Positions 25,145 to 59,712 of a stretch of 64,000 nucleotides of DNA are shown here, piece after piece; the stretch's first letter is position 1, and each line of letters begins with the position of its first letter. This DNA is from Naegleria gruberi. Its lineage: Eukaryota. The translations under genes and the position numbers were made by a program. The stretch is from assembly GCA_000004985.1 (NCBI GenBank), contig GG738868.1. One strand, written 5' to 3'. The notes under the pieces are model-generated. The model was not told the DNA's origin, did not search any database, and saw only the letters and a program-made list of their open reading frames with translations.

Positions 25145-27143
25145 TTACTCACTGATAGCAATATATCTATCTCCCATATCATCACCATCCTCATCATCCT
25201 CATCATTAACTTGCACATCCCACTCATTATCAGCTGGTTGTGTATCTACAATAATTGGAAGTTCCAACAATCTGTTTCTCATAGATTTGCTAAGATAACA
25301 ACGATTCATATCTAGAACCTCAAGTCCCATAAAATCTGTTGTCAAACCTCCTTCTAACTTGTCAATAAATTTTGAAACTCCCTTATCTGATAATGTTCCT
25401 AAGGAAATATCAATAATTTTCACTCTCTTTGAAATTGAGCTATCGAAAATATCACCACAAATCTTATCAATAGACTCATAGTTTCTCAAACCCAAATATT
25501 CCAATGATGGGAAGATGCCATTCTCTTTTGGACTTAATAATTTTTCCTTTAGGAGTTCTGGTTGAAAGTCAGCTCCTTGATTGCTTGTTCCCAAGAAAAG
25601 CTCTAAGTGTGCTAATTTTGGCAAATAAGCTGTGAATAAATTACGTAAGAAAACCTCACTCAATCCTGCGGAAATAAAAGTGATTGATCTCAAATTGTGA
25701 TGAGAGAAATTGGCAGAGAGAGCAAGTTGGATTGACCCTTTTGACATCCAAAAATTTAATTTTGGCATGGCATTCAAAACTGGTGTAATATCATCAATGC
25801 AAATCCAAGAGACTTCAGCATCACTTTGATCGATATCTAAATAGTAGATACTTTTGATATTATTCAAAATTTCACTATTTTTGACGATCCAGTTTGAATA
25901 TGTCTTTGGAGGAGTATCCATTGAATCTTCAGTATAACGACCAAAGTTGATTTCATCAAAGCTTTCAATATGTTGCTTGAGTAATCTCAATTGCTTTTTA
26001 AGGCCTCCCTTAAATGTTGGACCATTATTTTCTCCAGCATTGTCTTCATCAAAAGAATGACTGAAATTTTCACCATTCGTAATCTTGGCAGTTCTTAATG
26101 AGGAAAGTAAATTTTGATCGTAGGCATATCTAAACTTGATTGATTCCAATAAACTCAAGGTAGATGTGAATTCTTCCTTCTTTGCATTAGGATAGAATTG
26201 GAGAGCCTTTTCAACAGAAATTGATTTTCTGTTAACCATTTCCTTAAACTTTTCAAAATTTAAGGAGTATCTCTGTAATTTGTCTTCACTAATATTCACA
26301 GCAACATTTGCTTCCTGTTGTTGTTCTCCTTCAGTTGGCACATCGACAGGTCTATTATCTGAGTATTGCTCATCATGGAGAAGAGAAAAGAATTTGTATG
26401 GTTCTGACACTTTTCTTGTTGATCTAATGTAATTATTCATTGTTTGAATGAGGAAAGTAATGGTTGACTCATTATTTTCATTAGTAATCATATCATTGAA
26501 ACGTTTACAAACTCTTGACAAGAGTAATAGTTCATCAATGGTTACATATTTGAAAATTGAAAATAACAAATCATCTAAAAGAGGAAAATTGGTAAATTTA
26601 ACAATATTCACCACCTCACTCTCATCAATTTTTCTCTTTTTAGCGAGAGGTTGAAAGTCTAAATCATCTTGACCATCATCAGCTTCATCGTCATCATCTT
26701 CTTCTTCCTCTTCTTCATCTTCATTATCAAATGAATACTTGGTAGCAGGTTGAAGCTCACCCAATTTAACAGAATCCCAAATAAAATCCTCCTTCACAAT
26801 GATTTTCTCCTTTTCCTTAGCGGCTGAAACTTTTGTTGTTTCCTCCTCAAATTCCTTTTCTATCAACACATCATATCACCATAATCATCATCAAAATATT
26901 ATCAAATTATTAATAAATTGTTATCATTATAGTGCGCATCATGGATCAAAGTATTATTATTCAATTAATTATCATCATCATCAATAAATTACCTGTTGTA
27001 ATCAAGTGAGTGACTGCCTTGGTAATGGAAGCAGCAGTTTTACCACCATACTTTTTAATTTCATTTTCAACTTCTTTCCGTCCCTTGCTTAGGGTACCAG
27101 AGATGCAAAATACCAATGAATTGAAAAGTTTCTTGTTGGACAT
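25145..27143 (-). CDS. BRCT-domain / F-box-like / LRR protein, 2 exons
   Basis: Exon 1 (27143-26993) encodes a BRCT N-terminus LFNSLVFCISGTLSKGRKEVENEIKKYGGK...VTHLITT. A 133-nt intron (GTAATT at 26992 ... TAG at 26860) joins in frame (ACA G + AA AAG = T-E-K). Exon 2 (26859-25145) has an acidic tract, an F-box-like LLDDLLFSIFKYVTIDELLLLSRVCKRFNDMI and C-terminal leucine-rich repeats. Confidence 0.5.
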
Positions 27144-35466: not shown

Positions 35467-37283
35467 ATGCCCAAAGAACCATCACATAGTCTAGTAGTAT
35501 CGGATGCCAAGTTAAACGAGCTATTAAACGATACGGTGTTTGTGGGTTCTGATCGTGAAGCTCAAAAGAATAGAATCAAGAATGGAGGTAGGTTCTTTCT
35601 ATTAGTATTTTCGGAAAATATAATCAACTTGTTTTAAAAGATTTTAATTACTTTAAAGTGGACCAACTTAAAGCAATGATCAAGTTTTTGAGAACAGAAT
35701 GTAATCGTTACGATTTATCACTTCAAGGAAAAAAAGCCAACCTTGTAGATAAACTAAAGGATGCCTTCTTCAATTCTTCACCTTCGGGGGGTAGTGGTAG
35801 CAGTGGCTCTGGATCATCATCTGGATCTTCTAAACAAACAGCCAAAAGGACGTCATTCACCACAATATCCAATGCTATCAAATTACAATCAGCCACTGAT
35901 GAAGAACAGAGACTTTTAAGAGAATTTAATTTGGACAAAACATTGAAAGGAAGAATAGATCCGCACCAACAGGTAGAGCAATACTTGTATGTCAAAGTTT
36001 TCCATCAGGGGTTAGCATCATTCTCATTTGATTTGGATTTATCTGAAGAGGAATTTCAAAAGTTGACGTCACAAAATTATCAAATTAATATCCACTATTT
36101 TACTCACGATATGGTACCTAGAAACTGGAATAATGAACACCCAATTTTCTTTAATGGACACAAGTTGGATAACCCTGCCTTGAACAGAAAAATAGCTAAA
36201 GGAATGAAAAAGGAAGTACTGATTGTGTCTACTCCTTTTGTTATTAAAGGAGAGTACGCAAAAGTAGGTGTAAATCGAGTAGACATCAAGGCTGGCCCTT
36301 ATAGTACTATGGATGGAAGACTAGTTGTAAATTTTTTGAAAATGCAAAAGAGTGAGGAGTTGGTTCAATCAATAGTATCTAAATCAACTGTAAAACATAA
36401 CCTAGATTTGGACAATGAAAAAGTCTTGGATATTCTATTGGAAAACAAGATAAAGTATGTACCAGTAACATCAACAAATGAGTCAATAATAACCTTTGAT
36501 GACACCAGTTCAAAGACAATAACACCAATAACAGAGCAAGAGAAAAAGAGTATTGAGACACTGTTAAAAATTGTGGGAACAGAGACACCAATAAGCAAGC
36601 ACGACGATATGATTGATGAATTGGAAGGATGTGATGAAATAGTACCACTCAAAGACCCTCTTTCACTTTGCAGAATAGAGCTTCCAGCAAAAGGAAAATT
36701 TTGTGTGCACAAATCTTGTTTTGATTTGGTTGGATATTTGGATTTTGGAGCGAGTTCGAAAACTTATAATTGCCCAAGATGTGATAAGCCTCTTCCTTTC
36801 GATCAGCTTATTATTGATCCTTTAATGCAAAAAATATTGTCGAGTGTCAGTCAAGATGTGGACAAAGTTCTTGTGAGGCATGATGGTAGTTTTACAGTTT
36901 GTGACGATGCTCCAAAGAAGAAAATTGCAACACCAGCTAAACCACCAATAATAGCTGACATTATTGATGATGATGATGAAGATGATGTCATTCCTCATAG
37001 CGCTTCTCCACCATTCATGATTAGTACTCCTCCACCTCCAAATTCTATATTGGCAACAAATACAGCCTCAACTCCTCAAACTCTTTATCCACCTGTTTCT
37101 CTTGCTGATCTTTCCAGGTTTTTCTCTCCTTCCCTTACCCCTACAAGCAACTCACGTCCAAGTTTAACACCAAGTACACCAACACTCCAAAAAGGTACTC
37201 CTACTACTACTAGCAACCCATCTTCAAACACGAATGTCAATAGTTATGGTCTATCTGTTGATGATGCTATAGAGATTGATTAG
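35467..37283 (+). CDS. SUMO E3 ligase of the Siz/PIAS family (SAP, PINIT-like, SP-RING/MIZ), 2 exons
   Basis: Exon 1 35467-35587 (MPKEPSHSL...), a 71-nt intron GTAGGT...AAAG, exon 2 35659-37283. SAP motif LKAMIKFLRTECNRYDLSLQGKKANLVDKLKDAF. SP-RING CRIELPAKGKFCVHKSCFDL..YNCPRCDKPLPFDQLIIDPLM. Ser/Pro/Thr-rich C-terminus. Confidence 0.75.
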
Positions 37284-49329: not shown

Positions 49330-50089
49330 TTATTCTTCCTCTTCATCATCATCGTCTTGCCATGAAGTTTCAACCATTTCCTTCACTCTTCTCTCATAGA
49401 GTTTTCTATTTTCAGTGTAAAGTCTGGCTGCTTCACTGTTGGCTGGTGAATTTGGATTCGGATCAGTGAGCAAACTTTGAATGGAGGTTAAAATTGCAGC
49501 CACATCATAAATTGGACTCCATTGATTTTGAAGAATATCCAAGCAAATTTGTCCATCATTATAAACTACAATTGTATGATATGAATATTATTTAAATAAT
49601 ATTAAATATTAATATATATTCATGAATATAATAATAATTATTTAACGAAGGAAAATGTTATTACTAATACCAATCAAGTGATAAATACATACTATTTGGA
49701 TGGAACATTTTGGTGAGGAATTTTACTTTTGGTGGTTTGTTAGGATAGTCTTCATTGAAGGAAATGCTGAGTTTGAAAGTTCCACCTTCCCATGGTGTAT
49801 CTTCAGGTCTATCCGATCAAAATATTCATATTAATCACCATCAATAAATTCATCAAATAATAATAATTAACGACGTTCGTAAAATTTAGAACAATAAATT
49901 GTGATTTAAAAACCAAGAGCGAAAAAGAAGAACATGAACACAAAAAATTGTAAAAACCACCTACCCGAAAATTACAGCATTCCATTCCATAATATTGGAA
50001 TCAAGAGGTGTAGCGCTGATCCCTTGTGGTGGATCGGTTGACATCTTCTTAAAATCCTTGATTAATCTTCTCTTCACTGGTGTAGACAT
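49330..50089 (-). CDS. RAD6: Ubiquitin-conjugating enzyme E2 RAD6/UBE2A-B with polyacidic C-terminal tail, 3 exons
   Basis: Exons 50089-49965, 49808-49693, 49565-49330. Introns GTAGGT (156 nt) and GTATGT (127 nt, AT-microsatellite-rich). Reads [102 protein letters not shown]...[13 protein letters not shown]. Confidence 0.85.
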
Positions 50090-52513: not shown

Positions 52514-55228
52514 TTACTTGAAATATTTAGCAATTCTGTTGGACATTTTGTATCTTAATGATGGTGGAGATTTATCCAAATTATTAATATAATAATCTTC
52601 CATTGGAGTTGGTGGATAATAGAGTGGAATGTGACATCTACTTCCAGAGTACTTTGAAAAACATCGACATGAATCAATTCCAATACAGAAACCATTTCCA
52701 GAACATACATCCACACTTGTTGCATTCTTTCCAAAACACTGCCATTCATCTACAGTAATAATAACATTAAATGCCTCACCTGAATCCAGTGTAAGAGGTA
52801 TCTTTCCATTTGGTTTTGCAAGTGCCAGAACAGGTTCATCATTATATAGACTCGTAGAGGTGGGAGCTGCTTGAAGATATTCGTTTAAACCTCTTGCATA
52901 AATATTGCCCCTATTGGTAACGTAAAGTGTAGCCATAGAACTGTCATCTCCAGCAGATACATCAACTACTAGCTCAGAGTTTGGAATTAGTTTGACAAGA
53001 GATGTTCCTGAATAATAGTACATTGCAATACCATCATCTGAAAGAAAAGCTGGAAGATTTCCACATATAATTTTGATTATTTTCTTTGAGCCAATTAAGC
53101 CGTTTTCCAATCTGGTCCAATTTGTAACTGTTGTAACAGTAGCACTATAGATTATTCTATAGTTTGAATTTTCACCAATAGCAAAGACCTTTCCTGACTT
53201 GGTCAAGATATAAAATGTGTTGGTGCAAATTGCAAAATCTTGAAGGGTTTCACCTATGGCACTAGTTGCATTGGAAATATCTAGCTCAGTCCATGAAGTT
53301 GCTATGGATGGCATGTTAGGAGCTCCAAAATTTCCAACAGCTCCTCTAACCACTATACTTCCATTATTCAATTGTATACCAAGGAAATTATATCCAGTAG
53401 CTATCTTTTTTGCAGTCCAATTTGGTGTCTCAGAAAATACATCAATTGGAGTGAAAAGAAATGAAGATATATAATCAATACCATACTGATAAGCATGGCC
53501 ACTTCCCCAACCATATACTTTTCCTGAACTTGTCAAAATTAATCCATTGGTTGCTGAAATTCGAATGTCAATAATTTCACTATTGTTATATTGTGTTGCA
53601 TTGACTTGTTGAGGAGGGGTTGAAGAGACAATTTCATTGCTGTTTAATGAGGTACCACTAGCACAAACACCCCAATTGTGGAGAGTTGAATTTCCTCCTT
53701 CATAATTGATATTAATATAGGAGCAACCATTAGTTGATCTCACTAAAACATTTCTCACATTATTTGCAAATGGATTGTAACCATTGAGTGTTAGAGGAGA
53801 AGGAAGAACTTGTTTGTAATCCCCATAACCCATTTGGCCTCTGTAATTATCACCAAATGCATAAAACTTTCCAGAGTTTCCACTTATTAAGGAATAACCA
53901 TTAAGAGTTAAAAATCCTTCAGAAGGAATTGTATCACCTCCAATATCTATATCATACATATCGTATGGTGATGTTCTTCCTCTATCAGGATCCTTTCCCC
54001 ATGATAACAAACTAGCAGCTCCCATAATACCAAACAAGCAAAAACCTGCATTACTACTTCTGTCAATGTCAAGTATTTCACCGCTTAAACCTCTTGTAGT
54101 GGCAGCACTATTAATTACAGATGTCAAATTATAGGGTGTATAAATAGGGGAACCTCCAAAAGCAGGATTAGAGCTTGCTTGTCCTTCATTATTTGCACCA
54201 AACACATAAACATGTTTTGACTCTGTTAATATTGTTCCAGTACGATCTCCAAGAGTAATCTTTATCGGTTTCTCAGTGGAATAATCTAATGGAAGGAGTT
54301 GTGGTTCTGAAAAGACACTTGTTCCAGTATTTCCAATTCCTAATGCTCCATCTACATTCGAACCCCAAACCAATACATGATAGGTAGAATTAATGACAGC
54401 TGCACTATAACTATAAAGACTCATCGACAGAACATTACGTAATTTGGGTAAAAGTGTTGGTGTGGAGTCAGTTCCAGTGTTTTCAGGAGTGTGACCTCTT
54501 AATCCATCACCCCAACCACCCCATGAAAAGATATGACCACTATCCATCAAGACTAAATAAGTTGGTTCGCCAAATACTCCACCAACATAAACCTGAGCTA
54601 TGTTTGCAGTGATAGATACTTGCAAATCTGGATCGACGAAAGTTGTTGGAACATCATATTTAGCTAAACCTAATCCAAATAATTGATGGACATAGACTTG
54701 ATTATCTGTGGTGGCCAGAATACATGTAAACCAACACTTGATTTTGTGAACTTCCTTATCTTTCAATGGATTGGTGGCTATTTTATCCTGACGATAGTAA
54801 CCTAAAGTTACATAATTTGGAATATTATAAGGAACTTCAGCAAATGCAAAATATGAATTACTATTATCTCCTGCCATGAGAATAGTTTGTCCAATCAATG
54901 AATTATCAGTACCATTTCTAAATGACAGTAAAACTGTCGTAAATGTCAAACCTCCTGTTATAACTGTTGGAGTGGTAATAACATTGCTCATTCCATAGGC
55001 AACATTCCATGTGTAATTATTAGAAAACATTTCTCCAAAGTGTTGCAATTCAACAGGTGTCTTGGCAGCATTCAGAATAGGATATGCCAAATTTCCGATC
55101 ATGTTACTTCCCCACACTGTTATTGAAGGATTCGAATAGGTTGCACATTGTGTTGATGTGGTGAAATAGAAGAGCAAGAAAGTGCAATAAACTAGTGCTG
55201 CAACAGATACCGTATATTTAGAAATCAT
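52514..55228 (-). CDS. Secreted protein with RCC1-like repeats and C-terminal EGF-like module
   Basis: Signal peptide MISKYTVSVAALVYCTFLLFYFTTSTQC. Repeated RCC1-type blades (HVLVWGSNVDGALGIG, VYVFGANNEGQASSN, FYAFGDNYRGQMGYGD, VYGWGSGHAYQYG, IFSWGGWGDGLRG). Cys pattern CSGNGFCIGIDSCRCFSKYSGSRC near the C-terminus. Confidence 0.55.
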   Translation of the reverse strand: MISKYTVSVAALVYCTFLLFYFTTSTQCATYSNPSITVWGSNMIGNLAYPILNAAKTPVELQHFGEMFSNNYTWNVAYGMSNVITTPTVITGGLTFTTVLLSFRNGTDNSLIGQTILMAGDNSNSYFAFAEVPYNIPNYVTLGYYRQDKIATNPLKDKEVHKIKCWFTCILATTDNQVYVHQLFGLGLAKYDVPTTFVDPDLQVSITANIAQVYVGGVFGEPTYLVLMDSGHIFSWGGWGDGLRGHTPENTGTDSTPTLLPKLRNVLSMSLYSYSAAVINSTYHVLVWGSNVDGALGIGNTGTSVFSEPQLLPLDYSTEKPIKITLGDRTGTILTESKHVYVFGANNEGQASSNPAFGGSPIYTPYNLTSVINSAATTRGLSGEILDIDRSSNAGFCLFGIMGAASLLSWGKDPDRGRTSPYDMYDIDIGGDTIPSEGFLTLNGYSLISGNSGKFYAFGDNYRGQMGYGDYKQVLPSPLTLNGYNPFANNVRNVLVRSTNGCSYININYEGGNSTLHNWGVCASGTSLNSNEIVSSTPPQQVNATQYNNSEIIDIRISATNGLILTSSGKVYGWGSGHAYQYGIDYISSFLFTPIDVFSETPNWTAKKIATGYNFLGIQLNNGSIVVRGAVGNFGAPNMPSIATSWTELDISNATSAIGETLQDFAICTNTFYILTKSGKVFAIGENSNYRIIYSATVTTVTNWTRLENGLIGSKKIIKIICGNLPAFLSDDGIAMYYYSGTSLVKLIPNSELVVDVSAGDDSSMATLYVTNRGNIYARGLNEYLQAAPTSTSLYNDEPVLALAKPNGKIPLTLDSGEAFNVIITVDEWQCFGKNATSVDVCSGNGFCIGIDSCRCFSKYSGSRCHIPLYYPPTPMEDYYINNLDKSPPSLRYKMSNRIAKYFK

Positions 55229-55601: not shown

Positions 55602-56621
55602 TCAATAAACAATGGCATGTTTAGAAACAGTTTTGATTGTTTGTATTATTTGTTGGACCATAAAATTATGAAACGGTTCGGTGAGGCCATTCTGGTGCTC
55701 TTCTAGTAGTTCCAAATATTTTGTTCTGCATTTCTTTTGTACAGTAATATCAAATAGTCCATATCTATTAAGAATCATATTCATCAATAATCGAGCAGTT
55801 CTTCCATTCCCATCCAGAAATGGGTGAATATGAAGAAATTTACAATGTGCTAGAATGGAAAAGAGTGCAGGATGTAATATTCCATTATCAACTCTTTCTC
55901 TATTCAAATGGAACCACTCAAAGTATTGTTTCATGATTTGAGGTACCTCCTGAGGGTAGGGTCTAACAGTTTCAGAACCCTTGACACGAATTGGGATGAG
56001 TCTATAATTCGATTCCATAAAACCTTCAACATTGCAATAACATTTACTCTTCCCAAAAAGTTCGGTGTGAATATTAAGCAACTGATTTTCGTTAAAATGG
56101 CTTAGTGGTTGTTCCTCTAATTTAGAAATATATTGGAAAGCATGGTGGTGGAACAGTACTTCTAGACATTCTCTTGTGGTTGCTTCTTTTTGCAAAATCT
56201 GACTGAAATCTTGTTGTGATACACCCATTAGTTGTTCAGAAGAGTAAGTGCCGAATGAGTCAAAGAGGATTTCGCAGTCTTTTTGCGATAAAGTATTTCC
56301 CTCAATGCTTGTGCTGTGGTGAGTATTTGAAAGACGATAATTTGCCCAGATGGCATGGTTTTTAGAAAGCTGTGGTACAATACTTGTGGATAAAGAATCT
56401 AAGTAACCTAAATGATAGATATTTGCCAATGGTTGCTCATCTTTGAAGATATTAGTGGCTCCCAACCACATTTCTCCAGAAAATGCCTTTTTAACTTTTT
56501 CTTCTGGTGAGAGGGAGTTATAGATAGAGTAAATCTCCAGCAAACGTTCCTTTCGGCGTGCTTCTTTGCTCTCTATTATAGTATTAAAGGTTGCATTTAA
56601 AAGAAGTCGTGAGGTACGCAT
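55602..56621 (-). CDS. Fic-domain protein (AMPylase/FICD-like, class II with N-terminal inhibitory motif), single exon
   Basis: Canonical Fic motif HPFLDGNGRTARLLMNMIL. Upstream STSIEGNT fits the (S/T)xxxE(G/N) inhibitory helix. No TM or TPR region. ATG at 56621. Confidence 0.8.
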   Translation of the reverse strand: MRTSRLLLNATFNTIIESKEARRKERLLEIYSIYNSLSPEEKVKKAFSGEMWLGATNIFKDEQPLANIYHLGYLDSLSTSIVPQLSKNHAIWANYRLSNTHHSTSIEGNTLSQKDCEILFDSFGTYSSEQLMGVSQQDFSQILQKEATTRECLEVLFHHHAFQYISKLEEQPLSHFNENQLLNIHTELFGKSKCYCNVEGFMESNYRLIPIRVKGSETVRPYPQEVPQIMKQYFEWFHLNRERVDNGILHPALFSILAHCKFLHIHPFLDGNGRTARLLMNMILNRYGLFDITVQKKCRTKYLELLEEHQNGLTEPFHNFMVQQIIQTIKTVSKHAIVY

Positions 56622-57003: not shown

Positions 57004-58977
57004 ATGGTTTCAGCATCAACAACGAGAGCAAAAAATCGATTGTTAAGAGACTTGAAGGAGATTGAGAATAATCCATTAGAAACTGTGTATGCCCAACCTT
57101 TGCCAAACGATATATTTCATTGGTATGCAACAGTGTTGGCTCCAAAGGAATCTCGTTACCATGGAATTATATTGAATTTGAGTATTGTTTTCCCAGAAAC
57201 GTATCCGAAAGATCCACCCAAGGTTGTTTGCTCGACTCGTATTCACCACCATCATGTCTTTCCAACTTGGATCTGTTTGGACATGTTGAGAACTCACTTT
57301 TCATCAGAGCCTTACAGTGGATGGAGTTCCAGTTATTCTTGTTTGTCCATCTTGTTGCAGTTGCAATCCTTCTTATTGGAGGAGGAAGAACAGCAAAAAG
57401 ATTACATTAAGGAAGATATTGCATCATCAAGAGACTATTCTAATCTCAAAATAGGACATAATCCGAGTAAGGGAAATATTTGGCCACGAGCACCACATTG
57501 GAATGTGGATGAAATTATCAAATCAGAATATGATCCCTCTTTACAAACTAAAAAAAAGGATGAAACTCAATATGAGAAGGGTGTTGTTGACATGGATTTG
57601 GAAGAATTTATTGAGAAGGAGACGAAGCAAGCGAGCTCTGTAATGTCAAAGAAGAAGAGAAAAAAGATGAACCGATTACAAAGATCCAAAAAGGAGGAAA
57701 ATGATGAGAATGTCCCTTCAAGCAGTACATCTACTATTACTCACCAAGCACCTGTTCAATTAAACAAGATTGAAAAGATGAAGGACCTTCCAAATGAAAC
57801 ATTGATTCATATTTTGAGTTATCTATCTCTCATTGACTTGAAGAGAGTGAGCAACTCTTCCAATTTTATGAAACTCTTGTGTGAAAACAAGAGTTTGACA
57901 ACTGAAAGAGAATTGATTTGTTTCCACTCCAAAGTAACCTACAAAGAAGATATTCTTGGAGTTGGATTAACATTTGAAACAAAGGATGGTGGGGTGGTTG
58001 CCTCCATTTCTACTCCATTAGATTTGGTATCAAAAAGTGCATTCTTTGATGAAAGTGTCAGAAAGAGTGTTTGGGGTGTTTTGACTCAACAATGGATTCC
58101 AATATATATTAATAAGGAACATGGAAACTTTGAGGCTCTAAAACAAGCCGTCAAGAGTATTGCCAAGTCATATCCATCACTATCTCAATCCAATAAGTTT
58201 GACAGTCCAGAAATCTATATTGATCTATTGTGTAAATTGATGAATACCATGGTGGTTGAGATTATGAAAGGTCAAACCCATGCCTCAATCAAGGCCCTGT
58301 ATGGATATATGTACTTTCACCGATGGCTGATTTACTTGGTTCAAAAGTTCCCATCTGCTCTCAAAGATATTGAGGAACAAGTCAAATCCTTTGTTACCAA
58401 TGAGAATTCACGTAAAAAGTCAAATTGTCCAAACATTGGCGAATTCCTTCCAAAACTTTCAGTTTTGGGTCCATCTGGTTTAACTTGGGATTATGTTAAA
58501 TCATCTGTTGTTGAGGAAACCTCTATTAGAAATCAACTTTGGGTCATCAAGCAGTTCCCTTCTCTATCTTCCACTAATGATAGTTCAGATGATTTCAGAT
58601 GCACCAATTCGTGGGTGGCAAACAATGTCTCTTGTAAGCTAATTATGTTCCATGTATTCTTCTTGAGAAATGTTGTAGAATCTTATACTGACCTTTCTCT
58701 TGAAGAATTTGGAAGATTGTACGATAATAACTTTGGTTGCCCACCAAAGACAAAGAATGGTGATTTTTTGGAAGATGTTCTTCAAAGGGAGGTATTCACA
58801 ATTCAAAATGTGTCATGTTTCCAACAATATTTCGAATACGTCGGTTTACCAAATATGAAAACAAGAACATCTGTTGCTCAATATTTGAGAAATTGTGTTA
58901 CCATTAGTGAAAAGAGAAGATATCATAATAATTTCAAAAATGGAAACAAGAACAACTTTTACAAAAATAAAAAGTAG
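57004..58977 (+). CDS. UBC (E2) core with HPN replaced by HHH, fused to F-box-like motif and ~350-aa C-terminal domain
   Basis: N-terminal UBC fold RLLRDLKEIENNP...IFHWYATVLAPKESRYHGIILNLSIVFPETYPKDPPKVVCSTRIHHHHVFPTWICLDML with the active-site Cys present. Acidic linker and basic NLS-like KKKRKKMNRLQRSKK. F-box-like LPNETLIHILSYLSLIDLKRVSNSSNFMKLL. Uncharacterised C-terminal region. Single 657-aa exon. Confidence 0.65.
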   Translation: MVSASTTRAKNRLLRDLKEIENNPLETVYAQPLPNDIFHWYATVLAPKESRYHGIILNLSIVFPETYPKDPPKVVCSTRIHHHHVFPTWICLDMLRTHFSSEPYSGWSSSYSCLSILLQLQSFLLEEEEQQKDYIKEDIASSRDYSNLKIGHNPSKGNIWPRAPHWNVDEIIKSEYDPSLQTKKKDETQYEKGVVDMDLEEFIEKETKQASSVMSKKKRKKMNRLQRSKKEENDENVPSSSTSTITHQAPVQLNKIEKMKDLPNETLIHILSYLSLIDLKRVSNSSNFMKLLCENKSLTTERELICFHSKVTYKEDILGVGLTFETKDGGVVASISTPLDLVSKSAFFDESVRKSVWGVLTQQWIPIYINKEHGNFEALKQAVKSIAKSYPSLSQSNKFDSPEIYIDLLCKLMNTMVVEIMKGQTHASIKALYGYMYFHRWLIYLVQKFPSALKDIEEQVKSFVTNENSRKKSNCPNIGEFLPKLSVLGPSGLTWDYVKSSVVEETSIRNQLWVIKQFPSLSSTNDSSDDFRCTNSWVANNVSCKLIMFHVFFLRNVVESYTDLSLEEFGRLYDNNFGCPPKTKNGDFLEDVLQREVFTIQNVSCFQQYFEYVGLPNMKTRTSVAQYLRNCVTISEKRRYHNNFKNGNKNNFYKNKK

Positions 58978-59178: not shown

Positions 59179-59712
59179 GTGAAGAAAAGAATAATTGAAT
59201 GGGAGGAAGGCGAGTTATTGTGTTATTTGAGAAAAAGAAAATTAATATTTAATTTTAATAGAGTCACACATTTACATGGTTTGAATGAAAAAGCTAACAG
59301 ATTCAGAAAAATAATGAATGAAAATGGCAAATCATACAAATTCATTTCTGGGTCTAGTGATTACGATAGATATGAAGAAGTAGAGAAAATGAGAGAAGAC
59401 ATCTATCGTAAAATCATCAATGCAGGGTTTGAGCCAGACACAAGATGGGTCACTAATTCGAAACTAATGACAGAAGAAGAAAAAATAGCTTCTCTACACA
59501 AGCATGCAGAAAAAACAGCCATAGCTCATGCCTTTGTTTTAAATCCAAACAGAAAGAAAATATTACTAACCATAAATCTACGAGTTTGCAATGATTGTCA
59601 TAACGCTGCTACGTATATTTCCAAAGAGATGAATGTTGAAATTATTGTAAGAGATGCAAATAGATACCATCATTTTGTTAATGGTAAATGTAGTTGTGGA
59701 AATTATTGGTAA
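59179..59712 (+). CDS. Stand-alone DYW-type cytidine deaminase (plant-like E2/PG-box plus DYW, no PPR array)
   Basis: C-terminal 100 aa match the plant PPR-editing-factor consensus: AGFEPDT, EEEK, HAEKTAIA (HxE zinc/catalytic motif), NLRVCNDCH (CxxCH), EIIVRDANRYHHF, GKCSCGNYW at the C-terminus. N-terminus KKRIIEWEEG resembles the PG box. No in-frame ATG before the conserved region; see findings. Confidence 0.8.
   Translation: MKKRIIEWEEGELLCYLRKRKLIFNFNRVTHLHGLNEKANRFRKIMNENGKSYKFISGSSDYDRYEEVEKMREDIYRKIINAGFEPDTRWVTNSKLMTEEEKIASLHKHAEKTAIAHAFVLNPNRKKILLTINLRVCNDCHNAATYISKEMNVEIIVRDANRYHHFVNGKCSCGNYW

Follow-up and report, generated by a model that had tools for sequence, protein, structure and literature searches.

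A Naegleria gruberi gene that joins a Rad6-like E2 domain and an F-box to a C-terminal domain with a predicted UBR4-like fold

In E2/E3 hybrids such as UBE2O and BIRC6 a ubiquitin-conjugating (UBC, or E2) domain forms part of a larger protein, which presumably contributes an E3-like function of its own. The F-box is best known from the Skp1-Cul1-F-box (SCF) ligases, and the F-box/Skp1 pair is also used outside cullins, e.g. in FBXO45-SKP1-MYCBP2. We know of no F-box protein that has its own E2 plus an E3 module. Here, we describe such a candidate in a 64,000-nucleotide stretch of Naegleria gruberi DNA (contig GG738868.1 of assembly GCA_000004985.1), referred to as the window. The gene at 57004..58977 (+) is a single uninterrupted open reading frame (ORF) of 657 amino acids that requires no intron, and its product contains an E2 domain, an F-box and a large C-terminal domain, hereafter the C-domain, see Table 1. 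We lean towards reading it as a single-chain ubiquitin E2-E3 cassette that carries an F-box. As in UBE2O and BIRC6, a UBC domain lies within a larger protein with a presumed E3 function of its own. However, these two are very large metazoan or plant-type proteins with another UBC subtype, no RING-like/UZI module and no F-box.

The closest described system for the E3 part is human UBR4, a member of the UBR ligases, whose cognate E2 is Rad6/UBE2A. The UBR4 catalytic module, hemiRING-UZI, was not recognised until 2024, and sequence analysis was said to be unable to detect it (PMC10873205). It binds UBE2A on its RING-like face, and a loop of the UZI subdomain favours the closed E2~ubiquitin state (PMC10873205). 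To identify the C-domain, we compared its predicted model with known structures. In the model a beta-rich subdomain of about 100 residues precedes a helical part with about 11 main helices, the same overall fold as in UBR4. The best match is the UBR4 E3 module bound to UBE2A (8btl_A), with a score of 21.3 (292 of 353 residues, 10% identity), followed by yeast Ubr1 (8.7; 234 residues), and all remaining matches are unrelated proteins at 7.1 or below. This order agrees with the paper that defined the module, where the helical UZI subdomain was reported as a new fold with UBR1-3 as the only relatives (Barnsby-Greer et al. 2024, PMC10873205). Judging from the model, the C-domain very probably has a UBR4-type fold, and its two parts can be read as hemiRING-like and UZI-like. 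In UBR4 a di-Gly contacts ubiquitin Ile36, and the conserved Gly423 is a candidate for the corresponding position. A reading made earlier from the letters alone, the sequence-only reading, had left this region as a domain of unknown function. This still holds in that no Pfam family covers it, but the predicted fold now suggests what it may be. In UBR4 the module is part of a 574-kDa ligase that works with a free E2, UBE2A or UBE2B (8BTL; PMC10873205), whereas here all parts are found in one chain, which has no UBR box and carries the F-box just upstream of the module.

To obtain an overview of the family, a C-domain profile was searched against 1.84 billion cluster representatives. We found 2,590 representatives at E<=0.001, of which 911 reach E<=1e-30; by these sequence matches the proteins with a C-domain form a large protist family, so far undescribed. 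Among the best 64 of the 2,590 matches, 44 contain UQ_con and 22 an F-box-like domain (E<=0.001). Architectures were counted with custom hidden Markov models (HMMs) on 177 sequences, 167 of which have an N-terminally complete C-domain. An E2 is located upstream of the C-domain in 122 of these 167 members, and the order is invariant. For 40 of the 122 an F-box lies between the two, 26 of them with a His-type active site, while the other 82 have no F-box. In other members the pair of E2 and C-domain is joined to VWA, LRR, RRM, CCCH, CLU or TerD domains. Some of the proteins with the cassette are much larger (P0029, P0043, P0072, P0106 and P0157, with VWA, LRR, RRM, CCCH or CLU); they come from Pyxidicula, Soliformovum, Acrasis and Percolomonas, except for P0106 (CLU), which is a JGI/IMG metagenome sequence. 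A constant pair of E2 and C-domain with variable accessories is the pattern expected of a catalytic cassette with interchangeable targeting modules. All named members belong to Heterolobosea or Amoebozoa, and word-seeded profile searches for further named relatives only added Arcella intermedia.

Database entries describe the family members as "hypothetical" or "UBC core domain-containing", and our literature searches found no description of an E2-F-box or an E2-UZI fusion, in line with the sequence-only reading, which held that an E2 joined to an F-box is not a standard architecture. The individual parts (UBC, F-box, hemiRING-UZI) are known and E2/E3 hybrids exist, but the combination appears to be undescribed, as does a large protist family in which a Rad6-like E2 and a UBR4-type module would be covalently linked.

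The E2 domain is well supported. UQ_con (PF00179) matches residues 12-140 with E=9.4e-21 (74 bits, cut-off 27), HMMER matches to E2 proteins in the PDB are at about 1e-18, and Foldseek aligns the model with E2 structures (UBE2A, UBE2D) over about 150 columns with an E-value of about 1e-6 and a target-normalised template modelling (TM) score of about 0.7. In the AlphaFold model the predicted local distance difference test (pLDDT) score is 81-93 across most of the domain. Thus, the UBC fold proposed earlier for the N-terminus is correct, but the proposed length of 110 residues is too short, as the fold extends over approximately residues 8-145.

The active site was assigned with HMMER, by alignment to structures of the UBE2D type and of Arabidopsis UBC8, and with MAFFT, by alignment with UBE2A, UBE2D2 and UBE2W, and the two agree. 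Both place Cys91, in WICLDML, on the catalytic Cys, and both place H82-H83-H84 on the HPN triad of the E2 superfamily, so the two active-site assignments of the sequence-only reading stand. The first His of the triad is retained, the Pro and the Asn are both replaced by His, and a fourth His, H81, precedes them. The loop between the triad and Cys91 is one residue shorter than the canonical one, and residues 95-106, which include an 11-residue insertion, have a pLDDT below 50. The triad varies widely in the family: 41 of the 122 E2 domains have HPN, and at the third position about 52 have Asn and about 45 (~37%) His. The His-type triads include HPH (11), HSH (9), RSH (5) and HHH (3), among others, and the middle residue is freely variable. 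HPH is the hallmark of the active UBE2W-family E2s, where the second His has been proposed to take over the role of the Asn; the window protein has a His at the third position and no Pro. By analogy, since active UBE2W has a His at the Asn position, the Asn-to-His state gives no reason to consider the enzyme dead. The catalytic Cys is present in 114 of the 122 E2 domains, which argues for selection on catalysis, and the fused E2 is quite probably active.

To find the origin of the fused E2, a profile of 20 family E2 domains was compared with the PDB. The top 12 matches are all Rad6/Ubc2/UBE2A/UBE2B (101.6-99.8 bits), with UBE2D next (99.7 bits). A second profile, from 76 family sequences, gives 115.5 bits for UBE2A, 103.8 for UBE2D2, 96 for UBE2G2 and 65.8 for UBE2W, using reference sequences that were entered by hand. 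By these profile scores the fused E2 is Rad6-like and closest to Rad6/UBE2A, to which it is 34% identical. It shares with Rad6/UBC2 the helix-1 pattern RL.RD.K and the signature W-S-x-x-Y-x-x-x-S-I-L-x-x-x-Q-S, but it lacks the HPN and PNPNSPAN motifs and the complete Arg7/Arg8/Arg11/Arg95/Ser97 set of the Rad6/UBE2A orthologues. It is not the Rad6 orthologue of this genome; the true Rad6 gene is found separately at 49330-50089 (-), 7 kb from the fusion gene. Of the contacts that UBE2A makes with UBR4, the fused E2 keeps the residues equivalent to Arg8, Arg11 and Ser97. The UBE2W family is similar in the His that replaces the HPN asparagine and in a non-canonical region after helix 2, but UBE2W is a stand-alone E2 of 151 residues with a Pro in the middle position, which is variable in the fusion family. 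UBE2W ancestry was rejected on the profile scores (65.8 against 115.5 bits for UBE2A), and UBE2W is not among the top 60 PDB matches of the E2 domain or its profile. As UBE2W scores so far below UBE2A, the His at the third position is, by sequence, convergent with UBE2W.

Directly after the E2, 48 of the 122 members carry a knuckle motif, F-x-C-x-x-C-x-H-x(4-9)-[WFY]-P. In the window protein both Cys are lost, while His152 and Trp160-Pro161 are retained; residues 131-170, including the decayed knuckle, have a pLDDT of about 90. In the MAFFT alignment the tail of UBE2W (CNKNPKKTKWW; CNKNPKKTKWWYHDD) falls on GHNPSKGNIWP...HW..D of this region, a similarity that lacks HMMER support and is probably due to chance. 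The linker that follows contains the NLS-like (nuclear localisation signal-like) basic tract SKKKRKKMNRLQRSKK, and behind it lies the F-box, both as the sequence-only reading had indicated. The F-box is above the Pfam cut-offs for both F-box-like (PF12937, 27.4 bits, cut-off 24.3) and F-box (PF00646, 24.0 bits, cut-off 20.5). Its motif, LPNETLIHILSYLSLIDLKRV at residues 262-282, keeps LPxExxxxIxSYL among the homologues, and four short helices are modelled at residues 264-303. From this sequence evidence the F-box is likely to bind Skp1.

If the protein is an E2-E3 cassette, E1 would charge Cys91, with His84 standing in for the HPN asparagine as in UBE2W. The charged E2~ubiquitin would then dock in cis onto the RING-like face of the C-domain, which the disordered linker of about 75 residues may allow, and the UZI-like part would favour the closed E2~ubiquitin, from which ubiquitin would be transferred. 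Because the module would have its partner E2 on the same chain, no additional E3 should be required for ubiquitin discharge. Directly ahead of the E3 module, the F-box would bind Skp1 and tether the cassette, possibly also to Cul1-Rbx1. Such a tether could provide targeting or regulation, bringing substrates or regulators through Skp1 and Cul1-Rbx1 or through a non-cullin Skp1 partnership. The full-length AlphaFold model has a predicted TM-score (pTM) of 0.71. By our estimate the C-domain alone, with 52% of the residues, could not yield this value, a hint that the relative position of E2 and C-domain was predicted with some confidence.

Several observations weigh against a UBR4-type cassette. 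The link to UBR4 comes from one method applied to a predicted structure. Foldseek finds no significant match for the C-domain model in the PDB (best E=0.41), two C-domain family profiles give no matches at E<=10 to PDB sequences (hmmsearch), and Pfam searches of 25 C-domains at E<=10, which included the UBR4 C-terminal family, give scattered chance matches only, i.e. homology to the UBR4 C-termini is not detected in the sequences. The zinc site of UBR4 is formed by Cys4838, Cys4841, His4887 and Cys4890, while the place of the second zinc site is taken by Asn4884, which precedes His4887 by three residues (PMC10873205). In the C-domain this C2HC set appears to be incomplete. Within residues 302-400 only C306, H308 and H373 are conserved candidates for ligands; N370-x-x-H373 has the spacing of the UBR4 N-x-x-H, but the fourth ligand at +3 is absent. 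With these candidates, the RING-like face may be zinc-free or built differently. On the E2 side, three of the UBE2A residues that contact UBR4 are changed (Arg7 to Asn, Arg95 to Gly and Pro98 to Ser), and the canonical PNPxxP loop after helix 2 is absent from the alignment. It is thus conceivable, but in our view improbable, that the fold match is an analogy or a modelling artefact; the C-domain would then be a helical domain specific to this family, with another role such as localisation or oligomerisation, and the protein no more than an unusual E2 that also carries an F-box. The sequence-only reading had offered two roles, an E2 inside an SCF complex or an E2/E3 hybrid. Because of the predicted UBR4-like fold the hybrid is the better of the two, and the other is a lesser rival. 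In it, the protein is a conventional SCF substrate receptor, with the F-box on Skp1-Cul1-Rbx1, the C-domain binding the substrate and the N-terminal domain as a resident E2. An F-box above the Pfam cut-offs and N-terminal to a large domain is indeed the usual layout of SCF F-box proteins, and an ordinary F-box gene is also present in the window at 25145-26869. However, the C-domain accompanies the E2 in the 82 of 122 members that have no F-box, where targeting seems to fall to separate LRR, VWA, RRM or CCCH domains, and its predicted fold resembles an E2-recruiting E3 module and no known substrate receptor. We therefore consider the receptor unlikely.

The E2 could also be a catalytically dead, UEV-like scaffold whose role is limited to binding ubiquitin or other E2/E3 partners. 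Such a scaffold would fit the loss of the oxyanion Asn and the Pro from HPN, the shortened active-site loop with the insertion behind it, and the lack of a PNPxxP loop. This is nevertheless very improbable, since UEV-type proteins lack the Cys that nearly all family members keep, the HPH E2s of the UBE2W family are active, and 41 of the 122 members have a canonical HPN within the same shortened loop. Finally, an adjacent E2 gene and F-box gene might have been read as one ORF, the case in which the sequence-only reading would have failed. The linker is weakly conserved and predicted to be disordered, and introns do exist in this genome, e.g. in the Rad6 gene. Against this, the ORF runs for 1,971 nt without a stop codon, and the fusion recurs in at least four genomes of Heterolobosea as well as in transcripts (Trinity or MMETSP). 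A search for orthologues with the same fusion found full-length homologues with the order E2, F-box and C-domain in N. gruberi (two), N. lovaniensis (two) and Willaertia magna (query residues 250-657); the best full-length identity is 58%, and a 233-residue N. gruberi fragment reaches 72%. Look-ups of the exact sequences of the window protein and of P0001 from N. gruberi gave no entry. In homologues known from transcriptomes (Pyxidicula, Pellita, Soliformovum, Percolomonas and Vannella) a single mRNA carries both the E2 and the C-domain. Misjoining of two genes is excluded, and we give a gene-model artefact practically no weight.

Table 1. Coordinates of the fusion gene, of the parts of its product and of the stand-alone Rad6 gene in the window.
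Feature	Residues	Position (strand)	Remarks
Fusion protein: E2, knuckle remnant, linker, F-box, UBR4-like E3 module (predicted), in this order	1-657	57004..58977 (+)	
UBC (E2) domain	12-140	57037..57423 (+)	Pfam limits; fold to about residue 145
H82-H83-H84 in the place of HPN	82-84	57247..57255 (+)	HMMER and MAFFT alignments; H81 directly before
Cys91, predicted thioester-forming catalytic Cys (WICLDML)	91	57274..57276 (+)	Aligned on the catalytic Cys of UBE2D, UBE2A and UBE2W
11-residue insertion RTHFSSEPYSG, between active-site loop and conserved Trp107	96-106	57289..57321 (+)	Gap in UBE2A, UBE2D2 and UBE2W
Degenerate knuckle GHNPSKGNIWP	151-161	57454..57486 (+)	Family consensus, per-member segments
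Lys/Glu-rich linker, predicted disordered	183-256	57550..57771 (+)	pLDDT<50; unconserved among homologues
NLS-like basic tract SKKKRKKMNRLQRSKK	215-230	57646-57693 (+)	Inside the disordered linker
F-box	260-298	57781..57897 (+)	PF12937, PF00646
Beta-rich N-terminal subdomain of the C-domain, read as hemiRING-like	302-400	57907..58203 (+)	Conserved C306-x-H308 and I-N370-x-x-H373
All-helical subdomain of the C-domain, read as UZI-like	401-642	58204..58929 (+)	Conserved Gly423 (EIMKGQTHAS), loop between first two long helices
Canonical Rad6/UBC2 (UBE2A) orthologue, two introns		49330-50089 (-)	71% identity to human UBE2A over residues 81-150

The window is AT-rich (GC about 33%) and its genes are typical of a eukaryotic nuclear genome (SNF2, WD40, chromo, NHL-BTB, ABC transporter, SP-RING protein). 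Directly downstream of the fusion gene, at 59179-59712 (+), lies an ORF of 177 residues that is essentially a DYW nucleic-acid deaminase (PF14432, E=1e-33) with the C-terminus ...CSCGNYW; PPR repeats are not visible in this ORF. On the other side a Fic/DOC-domain protein (PF02661, E=4e-16) at 55602-56621 (-) is divergent from the fusion gene, about 380 bp apart. It is followed by an unusual, apparently secreted protein of 904 residues at 52514-55228 (-); its N-terminus is hydrophobic, RCC1 repeats are numerous, and an EGF-like module lies at the C-terminus. Two other genes of the window belong to the ubiquitin/SUMO system: the ordinary F-box protein, on the minus strand (PF00646, E=2e-6), and, at 35658-37283 (+), an SP-RING (zf-MIZ) protein with E=8e-13.

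A broader view, which we put forward as speculative and rather doubtful, is that self-sufficient single-chain ligases of a Rad6-like E2 and a UBR4-type hemiRING-UZI are widespread in amoeboid protists, that the subgroup with an F-box plugs into Skp1/SCF as an E3 within an E3, and that the Asn-to-His change retunes the acceptor chemistry, e.g. in favour of N-terminal amines or of residues other than lysine, as in UBE2W. If the fold match is true, a compact UBR4-type module of 340 residues is fused to a Rad6-like E2 in apparently thousands of environmental protist proteins. This would be independent evidence, of the Rosetta-stone type, for the pairing of this E2 with this E3, and it would provide a small soluble model for the activation of an E2 by hemiRING-UZI. 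The F-box poses the question of whether an autonomous E2-E3 unit can be recruited to a Skp1 or cullin scaffold. Further, HPN, HPH and HxH triads occur naturally on one scaffold in this family, a series that is useful for the debated role of the HPN asparagine.
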